A stretch of DNA of 64,000 nt. It comes from an uncultured Phycisphaerales bacterium. GTDB taxonomy: Bacteria > Planctomycetota > Phycisphaerae > Tepidisphaerales > Tepidisphaeraceae. The notes below the pieces were generated by a model. The model saw only the letters and a program-made list of their open reading frames with translations. It made no database searches and was not told where the DNA came from. Positions 20,297 to 62,131 of the stretch are shown here, piece after piece; position 1 is the stretch's first letter; every line of letters begins with the position of its first letter. The stretch spans positions 288,001 through 352,000 of the forward strand of contig CAVWVQ010000001.1 in the NCBI GenBank assembly GCA_963758525.1, in the 5' to 3' direction. The translations under genes were made by a program, and so were the position numbers.

Positions 20297-20720
20297 AGAG
20301 TGATTGCCACGAAACAACACAAACGACACAAAAAAAGAGAGCCTGGGGACGAGAGCAGCTTCCGGTTTCACTCTCTGCTATTGCGCGTCGCCTCTCTCTT
20401 CCCCTTTTTGTGTTTTTGTGTTTTTTGTGGCCATTCGCTCATTGATTTCAATGCGCTCGGCCATAGTCTCCGCGGATTGCCAATCGGTGTGCGACTTGCT
20501 GCTGCACCTGCGCCTGTCCCCGCAGATCTGTTGTGATTGCGTCACGGTATCCTTTTCGCTCGCCCCCGTGCGACATTAATTGGCTCCGGTTTCTCCTCTG
20601 CCAACGATTCCGTCTGTTCCAAAGCCGTAGGGTCCGCTCGGCGGCTCTTGGGTACGCCTCGAATCGATGACAGCGTCGAGCCGCCGTGCGGACCATTCCT
20701 CGACTTCCGCGAGAATCCTC
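20297..20720 (+). repeat. Non-coding module B (diverged inverted homolog at ~33545-33968)
   Basis: Colinear similarity including GTATCCTTTTCGCTCGCCCCCGTGCGACATT and GCCGTAGGGTCCGCT. Confidence 0.85.
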
Positions 20721-20729
20721 GCCGGTCGC

Positions 20730-21196
20730 TGCAGCAGATGGGACGCCGCGCTTATCCGCACGCGAAGGAACTGCTGATCACCGCCGATTCCGGCGGCAGC
20801 AACGGCTCCCGCGTGCATCTGTGGAAATGGCGCCTGCAAAAACTGGCCGATGAGACCGGGCTGCGCATCTCAGTCTGCCACTTCCCGCCCGGGACCAGCA
20901 AGTGGAACAAGATCGAGCACCAGATGTTCTGCCACATCGCCGAAAACTGGCGCGGCCGGCCGCTGGTCAGCCGCGGCGTGATCGTGAACCTGATTGGTCA
21001 TACGACCACGCGGCAGGGACTGCGCGTCAAGGCGGCGCTGGACAAAGCCAGCTACAAACAGAAAATCAAGGTATCCGACGAGCAGATCGCGTCGCTCCGA
21101 TTGACCAGAGACGCCTTTCATGGAGACTGGAACTACAGTCTGGCTCCGCGTGAGTCAACATAGTAATTGTTCAAGTTATTTTGTTACGGTGCCTTA
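20730..21196 (+). mobile_element. ISAzo13-family IS remnant (3' part of transposase plus right end)
   Basis: LLITADSGGSNG, CHFPPGTSKWNKIEH, FHGDWNY; end-like CAAGTTATTTTGTTACGGTGCCTTA. Confidence 0.88.
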
Positions 21197-21225
21197 ATCG
21201 TGGAGGTCGAATTTGCTCAGGCTTA

Positions 21226-21542
21226 TGGCGAAAATGTTTCTAAGGCCTTCTGTCATCCTTTTTATACTTCTCTATGCGCGACTGCCTCGAGGCTTTTATG
21301 ATACCGACATAGCTACACCATACAGTTGCGCAGTTTTTGCTGGATTGTGCGTTATTGCGCTTCTATGGTTTGTGGAGATATATCTTTTAATCGCGGTATA
21401 CTGTGATGAGCGCGCTGGAAGACGGAGCCCGTTAGCCTGCAAAAAATGCGGTTACGATTTACGGGAAAGCCTTTCTTACTGCCCAGAATGTGGTGAACCG
21501 AGCACGCTGCGCCCGTCAATGCGGCATCGACCTCGTTCCTAG
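21226..21542 (+). CDS. Small membrane protein with C-terminal Zn ribbon
   Basis: TM segments, CKKCGYDLRESLSYCPECG; visibly lower GC. Confidence 0.65.
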
Positions 21543-22462
21543 GCTCTGTCTGACGGATCGAGAACCCTCAGGTATTTCAGCATGATAGCGAGTTTGGCGA
21601 AGCTCAAGAAGTTAAGAGCCAGCTTCTCATAGCGTGTTCCCAGCCGACGACATTCCTTGAGCCATCCGATAGCACACTCGATGCGGCTTCGTTTGCGGTA
21701 GCTGCTTTTATCGAATCGCTCGCCCTTTGGTCGTGGCTGATTGGATTTGCGCGGGATGACGGCTTCGATCCCGCAATCGGCCAGGAACTGGCGAACGGTT
21801 TCGTAGCTGTACCCTTTGTCGCCCGCGATCTTCCCCGGCCAGCCGATGTGCAGGGGCGCTGCACCGCGTGCATCACCTTGTGGAGCTGCGTGGATTCGTG
21901 CGTTTGCCCCGCGGTAACGGTGACGGCGAGCACAAGGCCCTTTCCGTCAGTAACCACGTGGAACTTTGATCCCCATCCGCCGCGCGAGCGGCCCAGCGCG
22001 TGGTCGGCCGGTTCGAAGTCGAGGCCGCGCCCCCTTTGCGCGCCCCGGCGGCAGCGCGAGAAGCACGCACATTGGAGCCGTCGACGAGCCAGAGATCCCA
22101 ATCGATCTTGCCCTCCTTGTTGAGTCGAATCCGCAGTGCTTTGAGGATGCGATCGAAGAAGCCTTCGCGCCGCCAGCGGTTGAAGCGATCATAGACGCTC
22201 TTCCATTTCCCGTAGCGTTCGGGCATGTCTCGCCATGGAGCTCCGGAGCGAAGAATCCAGAGCATCCCATTGAGCGTGATGCGGTGGTCGTTCCATCGTC
22301 CGCCACGTTTTTGTACGGGGAAAAGTGCCTTGATCAGGTTCCAGTGATCATCCGTGAGTTCGTAGTGCGCCATCTGTCCTCCATGTGGAGAACATCATGA
22401 CGATCATAGAAGAACGCGCAATACCTAACGAGCGCCGAACATTCGATCCGTCAGACAGAGCC
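21542..22462 (-). mobile_element. IS5-family element (IS427-like, split orfAB)
   Basis: 20-bp perfect IR GGCTCTGTCTGACGGATCGA, flanking TA; orfA LRSGAPWRDMPERYG from 22373; orfB GRSRGGWGSKFH..AGDKGY..RYEKL; extra frameshift near 21853. Confidence 0.92.
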
Positions 22463-22464
22463 TA

Positions 22465-23694
22465 GTGGCCCCGCTACGAAGTCGTGCAAGAAATTGAGGC
22501 CACGTGTTCGGCGTACCATCGTCTCATCCGCTCGTTGGTCCAGGTCCACTGGAACGGATGAGCATACCGCCGATTGTACTCGTCGGACGCGGCAGTTACA
22601 TGGTCGATGAAATGCTGGCGATCTTCCCAGGAGCCGCGGCGAAGGTAGTGCAAGCCGAAGTTGTCGACCAGCAACTCCGCTTGGTTGAGCCATGAGGCGT
22701 GAGCGGGGGTAAAGCGGGGCCGCCACCAGTGATGACACTGGGCCCAATACGCGGCGGTCTCGCCCGAGGTATGACTGGGATCTCCGTCCTGAATCAAGAA
22801 CACTCCGTGAAGACCGCGATGGCGGCTGCGGAACCTTCGCAGTTGTTCGATGTAATGTTCGGCATCCTTCTTTGCCACCACGGCGGACTCCATCCGTCCG
22901 CTATGGAGGATCAGGAACAGGAGCAGATTGACGGTCCCATGCCGGGTGTACTCAAACTCCTGCTGCTCAATCGAGCCGGGAATGGCTGGCCGGATCGGCT
23001 TTCGTTCCAGGACCTGGTGGTTGGGGACTTCGTCAACCGCGACGGTCCAGACGCCCAGGTGGGCCAAATGGGCCGCTTGGGCATAGCACCAGAGCACTTT
23101 TTCCGCACGCTGCTTAAACAATGGATCGAGTCGGGCGGTTCGCCAGTACCGGGTGCGATGCGGTTGCAAGTTCACGTCCTGCAGGATTCGCCGGACCATA
23201 CTGGGGCTGATGGTGTCGACGATTCCGTCGACGACGGCCTGATGAGCCAGGTCGGCGCTGGTCCAATGAGTCATGTGCAACCCCTCGGCAATCGGCTCCA
23301 GGCAGGCCAACTCGACAATCCGCGCCCTTTGGAGGGGGGAAAGCTGCTGGGGCCGGCCCGAGCGAGGCTGGTCCGCCAACAGTTGATCAATGCCGCTGCG
23401 CTCATACCGCCGGCAGAGTCGCCAGATGGTTGAAGGGTCGCAATGGAGGTCGGATGCGATGGTCGCAATGCATTGGCCGCCCGCGACTGCCAGGACCGCG
23501 CGGGCATGCTGCACTTGGAAGAAAGGCCGGCTCCGACTTCGGGAAACGCACTCGAGTGCCCGAACATCGTCTGCGGAAAGAATCAGCGGACAAGGCCTTC
23601 GACCGCGCATGGAAAATCCTCCGTGAATAACAAAAAGAATCCATTTACTATCTTAGCACTGCTAATTTCTTGCAGGACTTCGTAGCAGGGCCAC
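22465..23694 (-). mobile_element. IS630-family element with intact transposase (22474-23610)
   Basis: 31-bp IR with 2 mismatches (GTGGCCCYGCTACGAAGTCSTGCAAGAAATT), TA duplication; EFEYTRHGT, TPAHASWLNQAE. Confidence 0.93.
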
Positions 23695-23713
23695 TAGGAA
23701 ACTTCTAACGGGA

Positions 23714-24100
23714 TTGCGCCAAGTTAAGCTCGCGAGAGGAGGATGTCATGCAAAGCTGAAGCATTACTGAAACCTCTCTGTAGAACCTTGCGGGTGCGAA
23801 ACCCGTCCGGCACAGCCTAGCCAGCAGCCGGTAGCGAGTCTTGCGTGGGGCGCGGGCAACTGCGTGCTGCGAAGCGTAGACAGCGAGTCGTCAAGCCATG
23901 CGATTGAGCCCCGAAAGGACAGTTGAAGAAGCCACGGCCGTTCCCGTATCCGTGGCCGCGCCGGATGGAGCGCCAGAGGCGGGTTCCGCCCGATTCTTCC
24001 GGGGTCGTTGGAGCATGTGCATAGCGACGGAGGGTTCTGCGAGAACTTGGGAGATCCTGTCACCTCCACGGAATAAATGGCGGCGTGTGCAGCAGGCAGC
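23714..24100 (+). ncRNA. Group II intron 5' portion (domain I region), truncated, no RT ORF
   Basis: TTGCG start; GCGAAGCGTAGACAG, ATTGAGCCCCGAAA and GAACTTGGGAGATCC motifs typical of bacterial group IIB introns. Confidence 0.75.
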
Positions 24101-24102
24101 AG

Positions 24103-24797
24103 GAAGGCTGTTAAGGACATCCAACTTTCTTGGCGATGCTCACGTTCTCAATCGCGGCAACGGCCGGCTGGAGATCTTCCGCAAGGCGGGAGACTTCCTG
24201 GCGTTTTGCGATCTGATGGTCGACGCCAAGGAACGGGCGGAGATCGAAGTCTTCGGCTTCTGCCTGATGTCCAACCACTGGCACATGGTGGTGCGGCCGC
24301 GGCGGGATCAGGACCTGGCGAGGTACTTCTCCTGGCTGACCAATACGCACGTGAAGCGGTACCGTGCTCATTACCGTCGGACCAGCGGCCATCTGTATCA
24401 GGGCCGCTACAAGAGCTTCGTTGTCCAGGAAGATGGGCATTTGCTGACACTGCTGCGTTATGTGGAAGCCAATCCATTGCGGGCGAAGATGGTGGAGCGG
24501 GCGCAGGACTGGCACTGGTCGAGCCTGGGCTGCCAGAAAGAGCTGGCGAGACAACTGCTCGACGATTGGCCGATCGACCGCCCGCGGAACTGGACGGCGC
24601 TGGTGAACGAGCCGATGGATCCGGCCGCCGTGAAACGGGTGGCACTTAGCTTCGAGCGTGGCCGGCCGCTGGGAAGCGATCCCTGGACCCTGAAAATGGC
24701 GGGCCGGATGGGGCTGCAGTACACTCTGAATCCGAGAGGCAGGCCGAAGATCCCGGAAAAAGGCAAATAAAACGGTGGATGTCACCTTAACAGCTTC
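24103..24797 (+). mobile_element. Y1/HUH (RAYT-like) transposase unit 1 with terminal IRs; N-terminus deleted (CDS remnant 24141-24770)
   Basis: HVLNRGNGR, NHWH, RYVEANP; degenerate left IR 24103-24128, right IR 24770-24797. Confidence 0.88.
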
Positions 24798-25261
24798 CCA
24801 ACAGGCGCCTTCGAGAGTGGGACGCCGATAAAATCGGATTCAGAAACACACTGAGCGGACATTTTAACATCGGTCCGATCTTAACCCATTGGACACTGTT
24901 GGCGTACACCAGCGCCCAAGCGGCGAACTGCGCGGCCCTAGCCGCAGCAATCTGCCCAGATGGCCAAAAGCCGAAGGCGATCGATCTTGCTGCCGTGCCG
25001 GCGCTGTCTGCGGCGATTTACGCCGCTTTTCAGTCGCGTCAAGCATCGTCGTCGCTGCCAAGCATGACGGATTTTGCACTGGCTCCAGACATATACCCCG
25101 GCGGTTCGTCGGGTGAGTCATCTGGCGGGCCGACGGACTGGAATTCCATAGGGGAGGCAGCCGCCACGGGGGCGGTCGGCGCGACAGCAGTCGGTGCAGG
25201 ATTCGCACTGGGGGCCGCGCTTGAGGAAGCGGCCCCCTTCTTGGTGCTCTTGTTGCTGTAG
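24797..25261 (+). pseudogene. Start-less orphan C-terminal fragment, polymorphic-toxin tip candidate
   Basis: Frame open from the IR with no upstream ATG; Gly/Ala-rich hydrophobic C-terminus. Confidence 0.45.
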
Positions 25262-25296
25262 CAACACACTTGTGGACGTTTTGTGAGGTCGTGGAA

Positions 25297-26340
25297 ATGG
25301 AATTGTCACTCCTGTGGAGGCATTCAACCGGTGGTTGGGTAAATTCCTCACCCGCCGTCGTAGACGGTAAAGTCTTCGTGCAAAGCGACGATGGCAATCT
25401 CTACTGCATATTTCTTTGCAGCGGGAGACTTCATTGGAAAGCGTTCACGGGAAACAAGGGTGGAATGTCTTCACCGGCGGTTGCGGCTGGGCGAGTTTAT
25501 ATCGGAAGTTCGCGGGGGACCCTCGATTGCTTCAGTGCCGATGCTGGAGACCTCCTCTGGAGCTGCACGACGGGCGGTAGTATCGCGTCCTCTCCGTTGA
25601 TCGTTGATAAACGCGCGTATATTGGTTCTGAAGACGGTTACGTCTATTGTGTAGAGGCTGGCACTGGCGCACGCGTCTGGCGGGCGCAGACCGGTGGTGA
25701 GGTGAACTCAAGCCCCGCTAAGGGAAACGGCTGCGTGTTCATCGGCAGCGATGACTACTCTCTGTACTGTCTTTGCGCATACTCCGGTGCCACAATTTGG
25801 GCTCGGCAGTGCAAGTGGTGGGTGACAGCAACGCCTGCCGTTAGTGAAGAACATGTATTTATCACCTCACTTTATGACCTCGAGTGCGTTCGCGCGCTCG
25901 ACGGCACCCTGGTGTGGGGAGCCAAAGCCGAGTGCGAAATTGCCTCTTCGGTCGCGGTGGGCCGGTCACATGTTTATGCGGGTGCCCTTGACGGGCGTTT
26001 CTACGCGTTTGACCGCGTCACCGGAAGAGCCGCTTGGAGGCGCGGGAGCGGACGGCTTGACGACATGATTCAGTCGTCCGCCTCCGTCGCAGGGGGGCAC
26101 GTACTGTATGGAGGCCATGACGGTGCGCTGTACTGCTTAAGCGCGGATGATGGCGCAGTGGAGGCGCAGTATCAAATTGGCGGCGGTATAGTTTCCTCTC
26201 CAGCCATCTCGGGGGATAAGGTTGTCATCGGAAGCGATGACGGGGATGTCTACTGTCTTCAAACAGAGATACAGGCGGCGGAAGATTGGTGCTGCTTTCG
26301 TGGCAACAGCGAAAGAACAGGGCAAGGCCAAAACGAATAG
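25297..26340 (+). CDS. PQQ-like (BamB-type) beta-propeller repeat protein
   Basis: Repeated TGG..SSP.V...VYIGS.DG.LYC...G...W units. Confidence 0.88.
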   Translation: MELSLLWRHSTGGWVNSSPAVVDGKVFVQSDDGNLYCIFLCSGRLHWKAFTGNKGGMSSPAVAAGRVYIGSSRGTLDCFSADAGDLLWSCTTGGSIASSPLIVDKRAYIGSEDGYVYCVEAGTGARVWRAQTGGEVNSSPAKGNGCVFIGSDDYSLYCLCAYSGATIWARQCKWWVTATPAVSEEHVFITSLYDLECVRALDGTLVWGAKAECEIASSVAVGRSHVYAGALDGRFYAFDRVTGRAAWRRGSGRLDDMIQSSASVAGGHVLYGGHDGALYCLSADDGAVEAQYQIGGGIVSSPAISGDKVVIGSDDGDVYCLQTEIQAAEDWCCFRGNSERTGQGQNE

Positions 26341-26360
26341 CGGGCCGAAAGGGGAGAACC

Positions 26361-27035
26361 AGGTGACATCCATCTTTCCTGACGATGCTCATCCGCTGAA
26401 TATATCATGCGGCCAGGCCCCGCACTTCTCGAGCCGCGATCGGCGGTCTGGTGTATCACGTTCTCAATCGCGGCAATGGCCGGCTGGAGATCTTCCGCAA
26501 GCCGGGAGACTTCCTGGCGTTTTGCGATCTGATGGTCGACGCCAAAGAAGAGGCCGAGATCGAAGTCTTCGGCTTCTGCCTGATGTCCAACCACTGGCAC
26601 ATGGTGGTGCGGCCGCGTCGGGATCAGGACCTGGCGAGGTACTTCTCCTGGCTGACCAATACGCACGTGAAGCGGTACCGTGCTCATTATCGGCGGACCA
26701 GCGGCCATCTCTATCAGGGTCGCGCAGGACTGGCACTGGTCGAGCCTGGGCTGCCAGAAAGAGCTGGCGAGACAACTGCTCGACGATTGGCCGATCGACC
26801 GCCCGCGGAACTGGACGGCGCTGGTGAACGAGCCGATGGATCCGGCCGCCGTGAAACGGGTGGCACTCAGCTTCGAGCGTGGCCGGCCGCTGGGAAGCGA
26901 TCCCTGGACCCTGAAAATGGCGGGCCGGATGGGGCTGCAATACACTCTGAATCCGAGAGGCAGGCCGAAGATGCCGGAAAAAGGCAAATAAAAACGGTGG
27001 ATGTCACCTTAACAGCTTCTCACCTTAACAGCTTC
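26361..27035 (+). pseudogene. Y1/HUH transposase unit 2, inactivated
   Basis: Start ATG changed to AGG at 26415; 95-bp deletion removing RYVEANP; partial left IR 26361-26377; right IR 26992-27019 with 16-bp tandem duplication. Confidence 0.88.
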
Positions 27036-27036
27036 C

Positions 27037-27230
27037 CCAATTGAAGGGATCACTTGGGATGGCAGGCAAGTCGTAATCCGGCAATCGCAAATCAAGGCCG
27101 TGGGATTACTTGAGGCCGTACCTGCGGCCGACGCGGAGTTCCTAAATGCCGAATACGTGGTTGAGGCTTTCAAGAGCTGTCCAACGAGTTTAAGACCGTC
27201 GTCAGAGTTGCTCCCGTTGGCGGATTTTAG
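27037..27230 (+). pseudogene. Start-less nuclease-toxin C-terminal fragment candidate
   Basis: IEGITWDGRQVVIRQSQIKAVGLLEAVP..; one added C near 27170 gives EAFQELSNEFKTVVRVAPVGGF-stop. Confidence 0.4.
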
Positions 27231-27240
27231 CAGGCGTAAT

Positions 27241-27699
27241 ATGGAACCACCGTTTTTGAATATTTTGCGCCATCGGGCGAAAGGTGATTTTGCAATCATG
27301 AATTGGGTGCGTGATCCTAAATTTGGCTATTTTGTTGAATGGGGACAGCCAATATTCCTTCCGGCTGAATCGATGCAGTTCGATGGAATTCATGTTGTCG
27401 TCTCAAATCTGGGCTCATTCGCGGCTCGTGATCCTGCAGCGAATCCGGGGAATAGCGCGAGCCGGCTCGAAAAGATTCGATTCAATCGGGAACACGATGT
27501 GGTGCAGGTGGAACTAGTTTCGCCATTATCGCTGACGCTAAAGCCGCTTCATCGGGACGGCGGCGGTCGCTACGTGGGCGAAGCGGGCACGGCGTCCGAT
27601 AAATCGATCCGATTGCCATGTGAACCCGAGCATTTCTTCCGCGTGTTGCAAGATCGCTTCGATATCGCTAAGGAGCCAAATGCACGGAAGCGACGGTAG
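27241..27699 (+). CDS. Hypothetical protein, putative immunity protein
   Basis: 152 aa, ATG 10 nt after the toxin-fragment stop, lower GC. Confidence 0.55.
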   Translation: MEPPFLNILRHRAKGDFAIMNWVRDPKFGYFVEWGQPIFLPAESMQFDGIHVVVSNLGSFAARDPAANPGNSASRLEKIRFNREHDVVQVELVSPLSLTLKPLHRDGGGRYVGEAGTASDKSIRLPCEPEHFFRVLQDRFDIAKEPNARKRR

Positions 27700-27807
27700 G
27701 CGCCAGTGGTCTTGTTTCCGGCTGTCCGAAGTGGCGATGAATAACGCATAGTGGCCTGGGCTTGCCGACATCCGTCTCAACACTGCGCACTGATCGCGAG
27801 CGTCGCG

Positions 27808-28008
27808 ATGCAGACGACCACATTCGCCAACTACACCAACGGCAAGCCGGGCGACGTCACCGATCCGTTTGGCAACGTTACGCACAATCACTATGACAGC
27901 ACCACCGGCGATTTGCTTTCCACCACCACACAATACGGTACCGTCAGCGCCGAGATGACGTACTTCACCTACAGCGACGGCACCGGCGCAACCGCGAGCC
28001 TTCCCAAA
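27808..28008 (+). pseudogene. RHS/YD-repeat fragment cut at the left IR of unit 3
   Basis: GKPGDVTDPFGNVTHNHYDSTTGDLLSTT matches the YD-repeat pattern. Confidence 0.7.
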
Positions 28009-28771
28009 GAAGCTGTTAAGGTGACATCCATCTTTGATTGACAGACTTTTTGCCGGAGTTATGATCCAACTATGCCCCGCACGTCCCGCGCAGCTGTCGG
28101 CGGTCTTGTCTACCACGTTCTCAATCGCGGCAACGGCCGGCTGGAGATCTTCCGCAAGCCGGGAGACTTCCTGGCGTTTTGCGATCTGATGGTCGACGCC
28201 AAGGAAGAGGCCGAGATCGAAGTCTTCGGCTTCTGCCTGATGTCCAACCACTGGCACATGGTGGTGCGGCCGCGTCGGGATCAGGACCTGGCGAGGTACT
28301 TCTCCTGGCTGACCAATACGCACGCGAAGCGGTACCGTGCTCATTATCGGCGGACCAGCGGCCATCTCTATCAGGGTCGCTACAAGAGCTTCGTTGTCCA
28401 GGAAGATGGGCATTTGCTGACACTGCTGCGTTATGTGGAAGCCAATCCATTGCGGGCGAAGATGGTGGAGCGGGCGCAGGACTGGCACTGGTCGAGCCTG
28501 GGCTGCCAGAAGGAGCTGGCGAGACAACTGCTCGACGATTGGCCGATCGACCGCCCGCGGAACTGGACGGCGCTGGTGAACGAGCCGATGGATCCGGCCG
28601 CCGTGAAACGGGTGGCACTTAGCTTCGAGCGTGGCCGGCCGCTGGGAAGCGATCCCTGGACCCTGAAAATGGCGGGCCGGATGGGGCTGCAGTACACTCT
28701 GAATCCGAGAGGCAGGCCGAAGATGCCGGAAAAAGGCAGATAAAAACGGTGAATGTCACCTTAACAGCTTC
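28009..28771 (+). mobile_element. Y1/HUH (RAYT-like) transposase unit 3, intact (CDS 28072-28743) with terminal IRs
   Basis: MPRTSRAAVGGLVYHVLNRGN, HWH, catalytic Y in RYVEANP, WSS; IR GAAGCTGTTAAGGTGACATCCA at 28009, inverted copy ending at 28771. Confidence 0.92.
28038..28065 (+). promoter_or_regulatory. Putative sigma70 promoter giving a leaderless transposase mRNA
   Basis: TTGACA-N16-TATGAT, ATG 6 nt downstream. Confidence 0.6.
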
Positions 28772-28853: not shown

Positions 28854-29444
28854 ATGATCGCCGTGAGGGATACTATCGCGGTGTTGGACTCCGAATTGCA
28901 AACGGAAAGTGGAGAGGTGGCACGCTGGTGTCTCGCCTGTTGTGCAGTCTCGACGCTTGTTCTGCTATGGGTTGTAAGCTATTCCTATCGTTTCAGTGTT
29001 TCCTTCAATCGCTCGGGGAATTTTGCCCGTCGAGTCGAGACGAATTATGATCGCCTTAGCTGCAATCGCGGCAGGATCCTTTGGTGCCGCCAGTGGGCAC
29101 AGCCTTTCGATCCAGATCCGCACACTGCCTTTGGGTCGCTTAACTTCGAACTGATGCACCTCAAACCAGGTCTTTCAGCAGCGTTATTGCCCTCATCTTC
29201 AGATGCTACTGGACGGATCGCTGTGTTCGGGTTCGCGCATTATCGATTTCACGAGGATGGACCAAATGCGCCGTATGGCACCCGGTCCAGGACTGATGAG
29301 TGGCAATGCCCTATAGCGCTATTCGTCGTTGTCGGCTGCCTCCCGGTTGCCGCAATGATACGACGGTTTATTCGCCAGCGACGTCGAGCGGGGCGCGGGT
29401 TTGCGATTGTGCGTCAGCGGGCGCCCAAAACTAGCCGCCTATGA
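28854..29444 (+). CDS. Hypothetical membrane protein
   Basis: N- and C-terminal TM segments, Arg-rich tail. Confidence 0.6.
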   Translation: MIAVRDTIAVLDSELQTESGEVARWCLACCAVSTLVLLWVVSYSYRFSVSFNRSGNFARRVETNYDRLSCNRGRILWCRQWAQPFDPDPHTAFGSLNFELMHLKPGLSAALLPSSSDATGRIAVFGFAHYRFHEDGPNAPYGTRSRTDEWQCPIALFVVVGCLPVAAMIRRFIRQRRRAGRGFAIVRQRAPKTSRL

Positions 29445-30814: not shown

Positions 30815-31410
30815 CTACCCTTGCGACCCCCTCCGGTGGCTGAACCCGGCGTAGATGAGCATGTTTCGCATCAACTCCGTGGCGCTCTTGGGCGAGTAGC
30901 CGTCTACTCCGTCCACTTTCTGCCCGACCATCCCCTCGGTGAGGTCTTCGCGGCTGTAGAAGACCTCGACACGCCCGCCATGCTGGATTGCGCGAATGCG
31001 CGGTGTCCGAACACTCCCCTCAAGGACGGAGCGGGCATAGGGACGATAGCTCACGTCCAGAATGGCCATCTTGGGGAGGTTGAATATCGGGTGGTCCGGC
31101 TGCAGCGTTTCGACAAGTCCTTTTTCCGCGTCGGCCCCAAGCGAAGTCCTCAGCTCCGCCTCGATGGAGTCGGCAAAGTCGCTGCTACCGCCGGCGGCGT
31201 CGATGATCAGCGTTCCGCCGCGGCTGATCCACTCGAGAAGCGCGGCCCGCTGATCGTCGGTCAGCTTAATTTTGGTCGTCCCGGTGAGATGGGCGACTTT
31301 GTAAGGGCCAAGAGAGCCGGCATCGAATTCTGCCGGAGTTGCGGTTAATGCGATCTTGGCCTCGTTGTGGAGAACAGCGGTCATCCGGTTCCATGCGCCA
31401 GGCTCAGGAA
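30815..31410 (-). pseudogene. DUF4159-like C-terminal fragment truncated at the end of the adjacent Y1 element
   Basis: PEPGAWNRM..GGTLIIDAAGG..F, DHPIF, YSREDLT; in-frame stop immediately upstream. Confidence 0.65.
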
Positions 31411-31887
31411 TCGCCTAACGGGACAGGTCCAATTCTTTTGCCTTTTGCTCGCTCGCCTGCCGCGCGGCCGCAACGGGCCGAGCCCCAACTGTCTCTCGGT
31501 CTTGGGGGTCCATGCGGGCGAACCGTACGGACGATTATGCCGGATCGCGTGGAAAACCGCACCCATCTCCGCGTTGGTCTGCGGCTGGTTGACCCATTCG
31601 ACCCAATCGCGACGCCGTCGGACCGGCCAGCGGCAGAGGGGAATGCGCGGCACGTCGTCGGTCGCCGGGCGCATCGACTGGCCAAGGCTGGACCATCGCC
31701 AGTCCTCTGCCCGCGTGACGATGTTGGCCCGCAGCGGATTGCGCTCAACGTATCGCACCAACGTGGAGAAGTGCGCATCGTCCTGGACGGGGAAGGACTT
31801 GTAGCGGCCCTGATAGACTGATCCATATCCCACCCGATGGCGATGTTCCACCCATCGCCGAACATGTGTGATGGTGAGCCGTTGCAA
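31381..31887 (-). pseudogene. Fourth, divergent Y1/HUH transposase, 5' truncated
   Basis: YQGRYKSFPVQ, RYVERNPLRA, WRWSS, RPRGR; HUH-containing N-terminus missing. Confidence 0.85.
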
Positions 31888-32043: not shown

Positions 32044-32080
32044 GTGCCATTTCGTGCCATTTCGTGCCATTTCGTGCCAC
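32044..32080. repeat. Decamer tandem repeat (GTGCCATTTC, about 3.7 copies)
   Basis: Read directly from the sequence. Confidence 0.85.
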
Positions 32081-32175
32081 TTTACGGGCAAAGCTGGGGT
32101 CTGGACGTTCTGATTGCAAATTCGGGCGACAGTAAACGTCGCATTGCAGACGGGGGATTTCGTAGTTTCAACGTT

Positions 32176-32655
32176 ATGGACCAAAACATTCAAAATACCG
32201 AGGCACATAGGCACGAAGGCACGCAGGCACGAAGTGATGGAGTTCCGGAAGTGGGAGCGATCGAATACCCAGCTGGATTCTCCGAGGAGCAGAAGCGGGC
32301 ACTGACGGCGATGGTGCAGGGGGCGAGCATTGCCGCGGCAGCGCGGATGGCGGGGGTGCATCGGGCGACGGTGAGCCGGTGGGTGAACGAAGGGGGCGAG
32401 TTTCATCGGGTACTGCGGACCGAGCAGGCGAAGAGACTGGCGGCGGTGCGCCGCGAAGCGCGGTCCATCGGCGAGCAGGCGGCCAATGTGGTGGCTGATG
32501 CGATCCGGGCGGGCGATGCGTCGGTGGCGATGGCGGTGCTCAAAGCACTTGGGGTTTTCGCCGAGCCGGAGTGGACACAGCCTTGGGGCGAAGATACAGC
32601 GGAGGGCAATCAATGTCGCGGCGGGTCGAGCCAACATGATACGGTGACGCAATGA
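32176..32655 (+). CDS. HTH protein (terminase small subunit/phage HTH-like)
   Basis: SIAAAARMAGVHRATVSRW. Confidence 0.7.
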   Translation: MDQNIQNTEAHRHEGTQARSDGVPEVGAIEYPAGFSEEQKRALTAMVQGASIAAAARMAGVHRATVSRWVNEGGEFHRVLRTEQAKRLAAVRREARSIGEQAANVVADAIRAGDASVAMAVLKALGVFAEPEWTQPWGEDTAEGNQCRGGSSQHDTVTQ

Positions 32656-33026
32656 CTATGGATTTACCGGGACCGGTGGCAGGGATGATTCACGGAGGCG
32701 GCGCGGAACTCCCGCGGCAGCAGGCCATCGCGTTGATGCACCTGGCGGCGGGACAGAACGTGGAGTCGGCGGCGCAGGGCGCGGGCGTCAGCCGGGGAAC
32801 GGTGTATCGATGGCTGCAGCGGGATGAGGCGTTCGCCCGCGGACTCCGCGACGCGCGGCACGCCGGGTGCGCCGCGGCCCGGCAGCAGATCGTCGCGGTG
32901 GCGCCAGCCGCTTTGGAACTGGTGCGCGGAACGGTGCAGGACGGCGACGTTTCGGTCTCCATGGCCGTCGTGCGAGCCATGAAGTTGCTGTCGCGGCTGG
33001 AAACCGCCGAAGCAGGTGCAGCGTGA
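32652..33026 (+). CDS. HTH protein, paralog of the upstream gene
   Basis: NVESAAQGAGVSRGTVYRW; ATGA overlap. Confidence 0.7.
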   Translation: MTMDLPGPVAGMIHGGGAELPRQQAIALMHLAAGQNVESAAQGAGVSRGTVYRWLQRDEAFARGLRDARHAGCAAARQQIVAVAPAALELVRGTVQDGDVSVSMAVVRAMKLLSRLETAEAGAA

Positions 33027-39037: not shown

Positions 39038-39571
39038 ATGATCCGCCCCGCCACAATTCATGACGTTCCGCACATTGAGGAGATCATCAACAGCCATGCC
39101 GGGCTGGGGAAGATGCTCTTCAAGAGCTACGCGCAGTTGTACGAGGACCTCCGCGACTTCGGGGTTTACGAAGAAGACGGTCAGGTTGTCGGCTGCTGCG
39201 CGGTGACGATTCTTTGGGCCGACCTGGCGGAGATCCGCTCCCTGGCAGTGGACGAAGAGCATATTGGCCGAGGCATCGGTCGTCGGCTGATCGAATGGAG
39301 CATTGATGAAGGCCGCCGGCTCGGCATTCGCCGCCTGATGGCCCTGACGTATGAGCAGGCGTTTTTTGAGAAACTCGGGTTCGATGTCGTCGCCAAGGAA
39401 ACGCTGCCGCTCAAAGTGTGGAGCGACTGCGTGCGGTGTCCGAAGCGGGACAAATGCGATGAGATTGCGGTGGTGCTTACGCTGCATGAAGTTCCGGAAA
39501 ACGATCAGCCCGCCGCCGCGCCGACTCCCCGGGGCGTGTCGATTCCGGTGCTGGAATTTAGTGAGGATTGA
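39038..39571 (+). CDS. GNAT N-acetyltransferase (short ArgA-like)
   Basis: LAEIRSLAV, GRGIG, LP.KVWSDC..CP....CDE. Confidence 0.88.
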   Translation: MIRPATIHDVPHIEEIINSHAGLGKMLFKSYAQLYEDLRDFGVYEEDGQVVGCCAVTILWADLAEIRSLAVDEEHIGRGIGRRLIEWSIDEGRRLGIRRLMALTYEQAFFEKLGFDVVAKETLPLKVWSDCVRCPKRDKCDEIAVVLTLHEVPENDQPAAAPTPRGVSIPVLEFSED

Positions 39572-39790
39572 GAGGTGGGCGAGGCACGAAGGCACGGAGG
39601 CACGAAGGGAAGGACGCGCCTGAGGGCGCGAGCTTTTTGGGTTTGGTTCATTCGATGTTCGACATTCGATCTGCGATCTTCATTGGAGCATGCGAGCGTG
39701 TCATTTGGATTTCGGGCGTTCGCTGATTGCTCTGCCTTCTGATTGCTCTGCCTTCTGGCTCCTGACTTCTTCTTCTGCTACGCTCTTCCC

Positions 39791-40907
39791 ATGATTCACG
39801 AGAACCTCTCGCAATCGATCGAAGACCTTTCATCCCGGATCATTGCCATCCGGGACTCTCTTTGACTTCCCCACCAAACTCGCTCGACGCAAAGCACTGG
39901 AAGACAAGATGGGGGATGCCGGGTTTTGGAATGACCCTGAGGGGGCGAAGTCCGTCGTCGCGGAGATGAAAACGATCAAGGGGGTCGTCGAGCCGGTGCA
40001 GGCGCTGCTGGAGGCGATCGACGACGTCCGTGCAATGTATCAGCTTGGCGAGGAAGCTGGGGATGCCGACACGCTGGCCGAGGCGGATCAAACGCTGGCA
40101 GCATTGGAGAAGCGCGGCCAGAAGGTGGAGCTGCAGTCGCTGCTCGACGGGAAAAACGATCCCCGCAATTGCTTCCTGCAAATCCATGCCGGCGCCGGCG
40201 GCACCGAGGCGCAGGACTGGGCGGAGATGCTGCTGCGGATGTACCTCTATTTCTTCGAGAATCGCGGGTGGGATGTCAGCGAAGTGGACCGGACCCTGGG
40301 GGAACAGGCCGGGATCAAGGACGTCGTGCTGCTCGTCAAAGGGGAATACGCCTACGGGTATTTGCGTGCAGAGGCAGGGGTTCACCGGCTGGTTCGTCCC
40401 AGCCCGTTTAATGCGCAGGGGAAACGGCAAACGAGTTTTGCGTCGGTCGACGTCGTCCCAGATTTCGAGGACGAGGGGGGCGATCTGGAGGTTCCCGAGG
40501 CGGACATGGAAATCGTTGCCTTCGTGCGCGCATCCGGCCCGGGCGGACAGAACGTGAACAAGGTCGCGTCGGCTGTGCGGATCACGCACATACCAACGGG
40601 GTTGCAGGTCACCTGCTCGGTCGAACGCAGCCAGCAGCAGAACAAGCGGCTGGCAATCGCCCTGCTCAGAGGCCGTCTGGAGCTTCTCGAACAGGCCAAG
40701 CGTGACGAAGAGTTGAAGAAGATGTATGGCGAAAAGGGCGCGATCGCCTGGGGAAATCAGATTCGCAGCTACGTATTGGATGATCGCCGGGTGAAGGATC
40801 ACCGGACGATGGTAGAGACGAGCAACGTCGAGAGCGTGCTGGATCGGGGGGAACTGGACGGCTTCATCGATGCCGAATTGCGGCGGCGTAAGAAGGAGAA
40901 GAAGTAA
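39791..40907 (+). CDS. prfB: Peptide chain release factor 2 with programmed +1 frameshift at CTT-TGA-C (39860-39866)
   Basis: 24-codon first segment; GAGGTEAQDWA, SPF, GPGGQ, WGNQIRSY. Confidence 0.95.
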
Positions 40908-40910
40908 GGG

Positions 40911-41142
40911 GAAGGCGCGAAGGCACGGAGGCACGAAGGCACGAAGGCACGGAGGCACGAAGGGAAGGAAGGGAGAGAGGGGCAAAACGGGGGGATCGGC
41001 TCCTCGGGGTACCGCAAACCGGGTGTTACGCATTTTCTACCGTGCCTGTGCGTCTCCCTTCCCTCTCCGTCTCCCATCCCCTTCCTCACCCTTCGTGCCT
41101 TCGTGCCTCCGTGCCTTCGTGCCTTTCCCACCCGTGCCTTCC
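40911..41142. repeat. Inverted arrays of octamer GGCACGRA repeats
   Basis: Array 40911-40963 facing complementary array 41089-41142. Confidence 0.8.
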
Positions 41143-41373
41143 GCAGTCCCTTTCCCGACAAACACTTACCAATCATTCAAGCCATTCCTGTGTTCGGTCC
41201 GATAACTTTGTGGCTGGTTTCGCAGCTGACGGATGCCCGGCCTCCGATTGACCTGCCGACAAAACTTCATAGACTTTCGTCCGTTATCGGGCTGGGCAGC
41301 ATTGAAGCAGGTCAACGGAGTGGCGACTGTTTGCACGGCCGTTCCGCAGTGTTGCTTTTGAGCTGTAATAATT

Positions 41374-56832: not shown

Positions 56833-56907
56833 GGTTCCTGCTCCCAGTCTGAAAACAGATCTCGAGACGGCGCGCTGCCGGCCAGCTAAGATTATGCCAG
56901 ATGAAAG

Positions 56908-57258
56908 GGACGGAGGGGAAGAGAGGGACGAAGGGACAGAGGGGAGAGGCACGAAGGCACGAAGGCACGGAGGCACGGAGGCACGGAGGGGAGGACGCTT
57001 CGCGGCAGAGTTAGAGCAGGGCTCTGCCGACTCTGCTGCTGGTTGGCGGGTTACGCGGGTCCCTGTTCTTGCGACTACCGCGCTCGCGACTCAGCATTAT
57101 TATCTGCCGTCGCGAAGCGTCCTCCCCTTCGTGCCTCCGTGCCTCCGTGCCTCCGTGCCTTCGTGCCTTCGTGCCTTCGTGCCTCCGTGCCTCCGTGCCT
57201 CTCCCCTTCGTCCCTTTGTCCCTTTGTCCCTTTGTCCCTTCCCGTCCCTTCCTCCCCC
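56908..57258. repeat. Long imperfect hairpin built from octamer arrays
   Basis: GGCACGRA and GGGACAAA arrays plus unique arm GGGGAGGACGCTTCGCG mirrored at ~57110-57127. Confidence 0.8.
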
Positions 57259-60830: not shown

Positions 60831-60903
<73 letters not shown>

Positions 60904-60978
60904 TGCGTTTGCCCCGATCCCGACGATTGCAATTTGCAGTTTTGACCGAACCAGACGGCCGCTGCTGCGCTTGAAATC

Positions 60979-61989: not shown

Positions 61990-62131
61990 GAGAACTCTTC
62001 GAGTCGAATGATCGAATGCCGAAAAAAAGCGAGGATTCTTGGGTTTTTCGGCGAGCGCAGGCAGCGGTTCTTAATCAGCGGGTTCCAGGTTCAAGTCCTG
62101 GATGGCGCATTCTTCCACGCTAAGATTCGGT

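Follow-up and report, generated by a model that had tools for sequence, protein, structure and literature searches.

The window analysed here, a 64,000-nucleotide stretch from an uncultured Phycisphaerales bacterium (C1:288001-352000 of genome G000, an assembly of 6.47 Mb in 6 contigs), holds three copies of a mobile element which, judged from its sequence, is a TIRtron, that is, a TIRYT tyrosine transposase gene between inverted repeats (IRs). In our preferred interpretation, for which we estimate a probability of about 0.62, the TIRtron is active and joins each of its ends independently at C|T sites, giving rise to adjacent deletions and tandem additions, and it gathers in dispensable islands rich in orphan toxin and immunity genes. 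The array in the window is then regarded as a decaying toxin/immunity island which has been eroded by a known kind of element in an active variant form. IR-bounded Y1 genes and orphan modules disrupted by insertion sequences (IS) were known already.

A genome search with the 22-nt IR showed that the array is one of several. Allowing up to 3 mismatches, we found 31 IR matches; the genome has 20 pieces of the element, which are spread over 12 loci and are 81-100% identical. The full 223-aa protein is encoded by 4 of the 10 two-ended copies and a 233-aa variant by a fifth; the spread of the TIRtron in this genome is recent. Copies are clustered in tandem at 4 loci, the array included, and several left-end types sit on near-identical element bodies.

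The outward junctions of these copies were compared. Of 31 ends in all, 1 could not be scored; in 22 of the 30 scorable ends the junction consisted of a C-run followed by T, against a background of 22% (p 3e-9), and after removal of the duplication junctions the same was true for 17 of 25 (p 1e-6). A target duplication longer than 2 nt was found in none of the 10 two-ended copies genome-wide, which agrees with its reported absence from the array, and in a comparison made within this genome no blastn alignment bridged the rejoined flanks of any of the 10. Since the junctions are biased to C|T, they support joins made by the enzyme, and the C|T bias, the lack of target duplication and the lack of a rejoinable empty site together lead us to an end-joining by the HUH enzyme that clips the neighbouring DNA. 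Spans obtained by tblastx over rejoined flanks were considered as empty sites and rejected, being interpreted as self or repeat matches.

The neighbours themselves are broken. Those identified are the intron and the RHS fragment of the array, a Y1 pseudogene of a second family, two IS-like repeats (the family names we use for them are presumptive) and an alpha-galactosidase gene, and a DUF4058 gene is also broken by a TIRtron end. The identified neighbours never resume past the other end of the element, and when the clipped genes were counted by hand, 10 of 12, RHS or otherwise, were co-oriented with it. The earlier proposal that the DNA is broken at the IR ends is upheld, but the breaks are not confined to toxin genes, for IS-like repeats, the intron and the alpha-galactosidase gene were clipped as well.

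Tandem duplications at the ends carry the same signature. An 84-nt duplication at C3:303.6k is bounded by C|T on both sides, four IR-end duplications share a starting T, a 73-nt duplication begins at C|T, and several end duplications terminate at C|C. At unit 2 the right IR has its outer part repeated in tandem, which the first-pass annotation had missed; the internal break point of this duplicate was found again at 3 other loci. In the accessible parts of the work on TnpA-REP enzymes, cleavage is described at C|T, for one enzyme additionally at C|A, and tandem units are added, in the authors' model, through nick-primed synthesis (PMC3333891, PMC8266576).

A simple insertion followed by host recombination between near-identical, co-oriented copies would delete the DNA lying between them and leave a hybrid with unrelated flanks. 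The 81-100% identity of the copies and their tandem clusters fit such a course of events, which would account for the flanks never matching, and varied left-end types on near-identical bodies are what one would expect of hybrids; recombination between copies could produce some of them. As the explanation of the whole data set it is nevertheless unlikely. Isolated copies lie hundreds of kb apart and would require very large deletions, and such recombination explains neither the tandem duplications with C|T boundaries that are found at the ends nor, in relatives, the clipping of RHS on one side only next to a single copy.

In the mechanism that we propose, the transposase would recognise the AAG-GTGAC core or the weak hairpin of the ends and nick single-stranded DNA at C|T, leaving a 5'-phosphotyrosine on T and a 3'-OH on C. 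One-ended strand transfer or primed replication could then lead to adjacent deletions and tandem additions, and copies would survive in islands that were acquired horizontally and can be dispensed with, places where other IS and arrays of orphan toxin/immunity genes gather too. Because the left end contains a strong match to a sigma-70-type promoter, read-through into immunity genes is possible; it could sustain the expression of downstream immunity genes and favour the retention of these genes. If such read-through or capture is true, it would be a new route to immunity against the toxins of neighbours, and if it is not, the array is a worked example of an element that erodes toxin islands. 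Although the TIRYT subclass is large, the literature found on it gives no cut site and no evidence of transposition. Here one genome offers 31 ends with a C|T bias, no target duplication, clipping on one side only and tandem duplications that have C|T at their boundaries, and owing to these junction features the mechanism becomes directly testable with a 223-aa protein and a 22-nt substrate.

Several observations weigh against the interpretation given above. The C|T rule was set post hoc, so that its p-values are generous, the length of the C-run varies among junctions, and of the roughly 8 junctions for which a homologous original exists, 2 lack, by eye, the expected AG in the target. No biochemistry of a TIRYT was found in the literature on these elements. 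A specific link with toxin genes is suggested by other data: of the 12 TIRtron loci in this genome, 4 have RHS pieces at a distance of 3 kb or less, where about 0.8% would be expected by chance (p 2e-6), and a TIRtron copy is at or near 3 of the 4 remaining matches of the array's RHS subfamily. In 72 genomes of the family, 7 of 127 Y1 genes had an RHS core domain no more than 3 kb away (0.5 expected), all co-oriented, as compared with 1 of 122 IS630-type control genes (p 0.066, or 0.036 when the distance is widened to 5 kb). Finally, a start-less DUF2515-like domain opens at another right IR (L001:7638-8333, which is G000 C2:453637-454332). Of 27 longer homologs, whose N-termini vary and some of which are named YukE-like, 23 carry this domain at the C-terminus, and it is on sequence grounds a candidate polymorphic toxin domain of the swappable C-terminal tip type.

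These last findings would suit the proposal of the first-pass annotation, namely that the enzyme captures, excises or reorders toxin-immunity modules in the manner of an integron; the IR ends would then be cassette boundaries, with the modules placed behind the element's promoter. Like integrons and recombinase-associated immunity clusters, the array has a recombination enzyme, a candidate promoter and immunity-like genes that are co-oriented; unlike them, it has an HUH enzyme repeated at each junction and no attC-like site, and no reordering is shown. Xer- or IS-linked poly-immunity clusters are mentioned in the accessible part of a preprint (bioRxiv 10.64898/2026.07.13.738213).

Beside the RHS enrichment within this genome and the promoter match, the integron-like proposal could draw on the CdiI-type gene and RHS fragment, which have a right IR on one side and a left IR on the other, and on the order "start-less ORF (open reading frame), then intact gene" behind many right IRs of the genome, for most of which homology support is missing. 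In relatives, RHS frames touch the IR at L120, L121, L123, L127 and L153, and do so at solo IRs in L149, co-oriented and on one side only. Genes for membrane proteins with a C-terminal Zn-ribbon, which we consider a candidate uncharacterised immunity family, lie within 2 kb of an IR in 3 of 19 cases (p 0.001). They were found by TIRtron ends or RHS pieces at G000 C3:222779, 224438 and 4615499 and at L083, L086, L124, L140, L142 and L143, and they are present between RHS pieces in Y1-free arrays too.

The tests of specificity did not bear this proposal out. Windows fetched around the relatives' genes and searched with 39 RHS queries gave 7 of 87 Y1 genes against 3 of 60 IS630-type genes (p 0.53), the control matches being co-oriented too, so that the enrichment of RHS around homologs that the first-pass annotation had led one to expect in relatives does not significantly exceed the control, and in 80 of the 87 relatives no RHS was found within 3 kb. 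This test omitted matches for which a contig start was no more than 3 kb away (40 of the 127 Y1 genes, 2 of them from genome G283) and used 60 of the 122 controls, at most 3 per genome; as the more sensitive one it was weighted above the borderline core-domain test. G283 contributes 2 Y1 genes, 2 controls and 7 RHS rows to the totals of the core-domain test and no positive, and the Zn-ribbon motif, seen at 6 of 86 loci, is present at its locus L051; no conclusion depends on this genome. The relative Y1 genes were drawn from 150 of 192 Y1 matches, among the matches listed. In this genome 1 of 9 IS5-like copies was near RHS pieces, which does not differ significantly from the 4 of 12 TIRtron loci (p 0.34), and 3 of the 9 lie within 3 kb of a TIRtron; the IS5 copies beside TIRtrons mark shared hot spots.

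When, conversely, 15 further loci were chosen for their RHS cores, 14 had no Y1 gene, the exception being the known neighbour in G295; one of the 14 Y1-free loci carries solo IRs. No duplicated or reordered cassette was found in the genome, no conserved cassette-side recombination site was seen, and among 121 flank ORFs no Pfam immunity family was detected at E<=1e-4. The capture and reordering of modules by the enzyme is therefore rather improbable, and we judge the same of a lineage-specific recruitment in which ends cut at C|T trim the fronts of toxin genes, splice tip-plus-immunity pairs behind the promoter and may move or reorder the modules. If it were true, it would be a cassette system powered by a single-strand tyrosine transposase and not by an integrase. 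A dedicated toxin-shuffling role of the TIRtron is possible yet unsupported by the tests.

No literature link between TIRYT or RAYT proteins and RHS or immunity arrays was found, subscription papers being thinly covered; "rhs" and "target site" do not occur in the main text of PMC3733652, nor "rhs" in that of PMC6006769. Orphan modules disrupted by IS are already in print (in the accessible part of PMC3150448). With orphan CdiA-CT/CdiI and Rhs-CT/RhsI arrays, as far as the accessible parts of Poole et al. 2011 (PMC3150448) and of PMC9086364 describe them, the array shares start-less tips followed by intact immunity genes, a CdiI fold of the 4G6U/4ZQU family and disruption by IS. It differs from them in that the pieces are bounded by transposon IRs instead of conserved RHS/VENN blocks, and no intact parent RHS gene adjoins. 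The relative G247, a single contig (C1, L140-L144), has several long orphan arrays, which together hold 23 RHS cores, and no Y1 gene was found in the five stretches of it that were fetched.

The features of the array are collected in Table 1.

Table 1. Features in and beside the TIRtron array; positions are those of the window.
Feature	Position	Strand	Basis or remark
Group II intron 5' remnant (D1-D4)	23797..24102	+	RF02005 at 23797-24015, 114.6 bits, E 2e-32; stops at left IR of unit 1
TIRtron unit 1	24103..24797	+	Degenerate left IR 24103-24123, 5'-deleted transposase gene, right IR 24776-24797
Start-less 153-aa ORF	24800..25261	+	Opens at right IR of unit 1; Gly/Ala-rich hydrophobic tail; toxin-tip-like by position only
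Intact PQQ/BamB-like beta-propeller gene	25297..26340	+	PF13570 E 4e-58, PF13360 E 7e-39
TIRtron unit 2	26361..27019	+	Partial left IR 26361-26372, 95-nt deletion near 26722, right IR 26998-27019
Tandem duplicate of outer right-IR part, 16 nt	27020..27035	+	Sequence comparison of copies
Start-less remnant upstream of CdiI-type gene	27036..27240	+	74 aa; position-based toxin-tip candidate
Predicted CdiI-type immunity gene (EC869/TA271/YPIII family), intact	27241..27699	+	152 aa; family, profile and fold
Internal RHS/YD-repeat fragment	27745..28008	+	blastp; cut at left IR of unit 3
TIRtron unit 3, intact, 763 bp	28009..28771	+	Left IR 28009-28030, right IR 28750-28771
Sigma-70-type promoter match, 11/12	28038..28065	+	Inside left end of unit 3; consensus match only
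HUH/Y1 tyrosine transposase, 223 aa	28072..28743	+	PF01797, alignment; NHWH, YVEANP
Predicted membrane-protein gene	28854..29444	+	After right IR of unit 3; weak, 15.7 bits to a home-made membrane/Zn-ribbon profile

Units 1-3 share their orientation and are 91-98% identical to each other, so that the description of three near-identical, co-oriented RAYT-like genes is essentially right, but unit 3 alone is intact. In unit 1 the first ~14 codons are missing, the degenerate left end being fused into codon ~15, and the deletion in unit 2 has removed RYVEANP with the catalytic Tyr and shifted the frame. The 22-mer of the left end of unit 3 has inverse copies ending at 24797, 27019 and 28771. It had been called non-palindromic, which holds for the 22-mer alone, as it is near non-folding (-0.3 kcal/mol); with the inner bases included, a weak hairpin of 4-6 bp appears at each end. 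The stability of these hairpins was no better than that of shuffled sequences (mean z -0.7).

The transposase gave a PF01797 match in 71 of 71 family members. In the alignment of the 71 sequences H60 and H62 are invariant and Y121 is nearly so (>=90%), and the best solved relative by profile and by fold (AlphaFold2 model, pLDDT 95) is E. coli TnpA-REP, 4ER8. These results, with the positions of the IRs, confirm a RAYT-like HUH/Y1 enzyme bounded by terminal repeats. The arrangement itself, suspected at first of being undescribed, was already reported as TIRtron/TIRYT by Di Nocera, De Gregorio and Rocco in 2013, according to the accessible part of PMC3733652, and TIRYTs were tentatively equated with TnpA-Y1 subclass 2.1 by Quentin et al. 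2018 (PMC6006769, accessible part). There, all 20 TIRYTs are put in this subclass with a C-terminal helix-turn-helix (HTH) or Bac_DnaA_C-like domain, TIRYT proteins are among the largest Y1 subclasses (14.9% of species), and a typical member has the class-2 Y---NP motif, NHxH, an FQ/WQ-type motif, an SS extension and about 238 aa.

The motifs NHWH, LYQ, YVEANP and WSS and the length of 223 aa, set against Table 1 of PMC6006769, suggest that the transposase probably belongs to subclass 2.1, an assignment judged by motifs and not by a tree with the published set. The placement asked for earlier is thus supported by the motifs but not by the C-terminal HTH domain: none of the 71 members matched an HTH Pfam family at E<=0.01, the authors' own tail profiles not being among those applied, and no HTH protein was among the listed Foldseek matches of the model. 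Instead, the predicted tail consists of four helices and finishes in RGRP motifs, which may be AT-hook-like.

The element resembles TIRtron/TIRYT as described in the accessible parts of PMC3733652 and PMC6006769 in its RAYT-like HUH/Y1 gene, terminal IRs at a fixed distance, the Y---NP motif, the SS extension and the lack of a REP array, and perhaps in a core like the GGGGWSAS motif present in most terminal IRs of TIRtrons (PMC3733652). It differs in the tail, a Pfam HTH or DnaA-C domain being absent in 71 of 71, and in the 81-100% identity of its genome copies, an IS-like behaviour, whereas subclass 2.1 proteins show a mean identity of 49% (PMC6006769, accessible part).

REPtrons and TnpA-REP provide the closest solved structure, and their C|T/C|A cleavage and tandem-addition model (PMC3333891, PMC8266576, accessible parts) agree with the junction bias and the end duplications seen here. 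Unlike REPtrons, which according to the same sources do not move as a unit and whose single-copy gene is flanked by REP/BIME arrays, the gene of the window is multi-copy with both ends, and at the units no GTAG-footed REP hairpins were seen, just the IRs and the weak hairpins. IS200/IS605 TnpA (IS608, ISDra2) likewise has the HUH/Y1 fold and makes no target duplication; the TIRtron is unlike it in having Y---NP and not Y---Q, symmetrical IRs and not distinct subterminal hairpins, no tnpB and non-contiguous flanks.

The DNA between the units is indeed somewhat lower in GC, as noted earlier (58.3% and 54.6% in the spacers, 60-61% in the units), and the start-less ORFs at two right IRs, each followed by an intact gene, and the intron and RHS fragment stopping at left IRs were all found again. 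Their reading as toxin/immunity cassettes is partly borne out for the second spacer, with its CdiI fold and RHS fragment, and is unsupported for the first, where homology to toxin or immunity proteins was absent in every test run on 24800-26340. For its start-less ORF no Pfam match, no meaningful NCBIfam match and no homolog in Atlas or among 120 RHS proteins was obtained, and the beta-propeller gene has no close homolog (E<=1e-45) in the 72 family genomes. The intron remnant has no second copy in the genome at >=80% identity.

In the second spacer the ORF 27022-27699 resolves into a start-less remnant and an intact gene of 152 aa. The latter has 66 matches among 50% representatives, the proteins of its family being about 145 aa long, and PF07262 was found in 4 of 57 family members. 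Profile matches were obtained with 2gkp (E 0.0045) and 4zqv (E 0.024), and the five top Foldseek matches of the AlphaFold2 model (pLDDT 93) were all CdiI or NMB0488 (E 7e-6 to 1e-3), with low sequence identity and a TM of about 0.6. By family, profile and predicted fold the product is a CdiI-type orphan immunity protein. The EC869/TA271/YPIII type of CdiI neutralises a PD-(D/E)XK DNase, the cognate tip being bound by beta-augmentation. A word-based homolog search with 27022-27696 returned nothing, Atlas gave no usable match, and the CdiI family was absent from 300 other phylum genomes searched and from plasmids.

The remnant upstream of this gene, which we take to be similar to EC869-type tips, a likeness unconfirmed by the searches, is by its position probably a clipped toxin tip. 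It had no match in Pfam, PDB or plasmids, nor with PF21111 in its own genome; over 301 phylum genomes PF21111 gave no match, and the controls were silent too. The RHS fragment matched 3 of 120 RHS proteins by blastp, best residues 1021-1086 of P0004 (E 1e-5, 38% identity), and had no Pfam or NCBIfam match. RHS pieces are at or near three further TIRtron loci of the genome. At L011:9690-13757 (G000 C3:3470688-3474756) a single frame running from a right IR joins, in this order, an RHS core, a first tip, another RHS segment and another tip.

That the triplication is a repeat assembly artefact is very improbable. It is true that none of 4 public runs, in which the region occurs as low-depth pieces, has a contig spanning the array, so that a local mis-assembly is conceivable, and that the assembly has 6% contamination. 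Each unit has, however, private substitutions and deletions and its own unique flanks, comparable multi-copy clusters occur at three other loci, and runs X1 and X2 contain spacer pieces that are 99-100% identical. No end-to-end joint of the element was seen among the joints shown in the low-depth contigs of the public runs. The GC skew, looked at for a replication-strand bias, is weak in the genome.

Contigs of runs X1 and X2 exit the right IR into flanks which, by eye, are outside the 31 of this genome, which suggests further TIRtron insertions in related strains. Among relatives, an IR pair was found for 69 of 108 complete genes with flanks, the median distance to the start codon being 60 nt. 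Of these 69, 59 have a GG(G/T)GWCR-like core and 10 the strict GGGGWSAS; the IR of the window agrees with the latter at 6 of 8 positions. Partial tandem IR copies are stacked outside the ends in L120, L127, L136, L137 and L064.

A second Y1 family, 41-49% identical to the first and frequently represented by pseudogenes, is interspersed among the first-family copies (31381-31887 of the window, minus strand; G000 C3:1093985, 1062037 and 2876052, C1:205255). A repeat of about 15 copies near HTH ORFs (32044-33026) is interspersed with both families. Upstream of the array, an IS cluster at 20537-23711 comprises an ISAzo13-type fragment, an IS5-type element (9 genome copies) and an IS630-type element (4). 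Octamer tandem repeats were found at 32185-32265, 39566-39630, 40897-41156 and 56905-57255, some of them as inverted pairs that form long hairpins. An exact 42-nt direct repeat, presumably similar to the 3' part of a tRNA, occurs at 60863-60904 and 62069-62110, 1.2 kb apart, and may be an integration scar.

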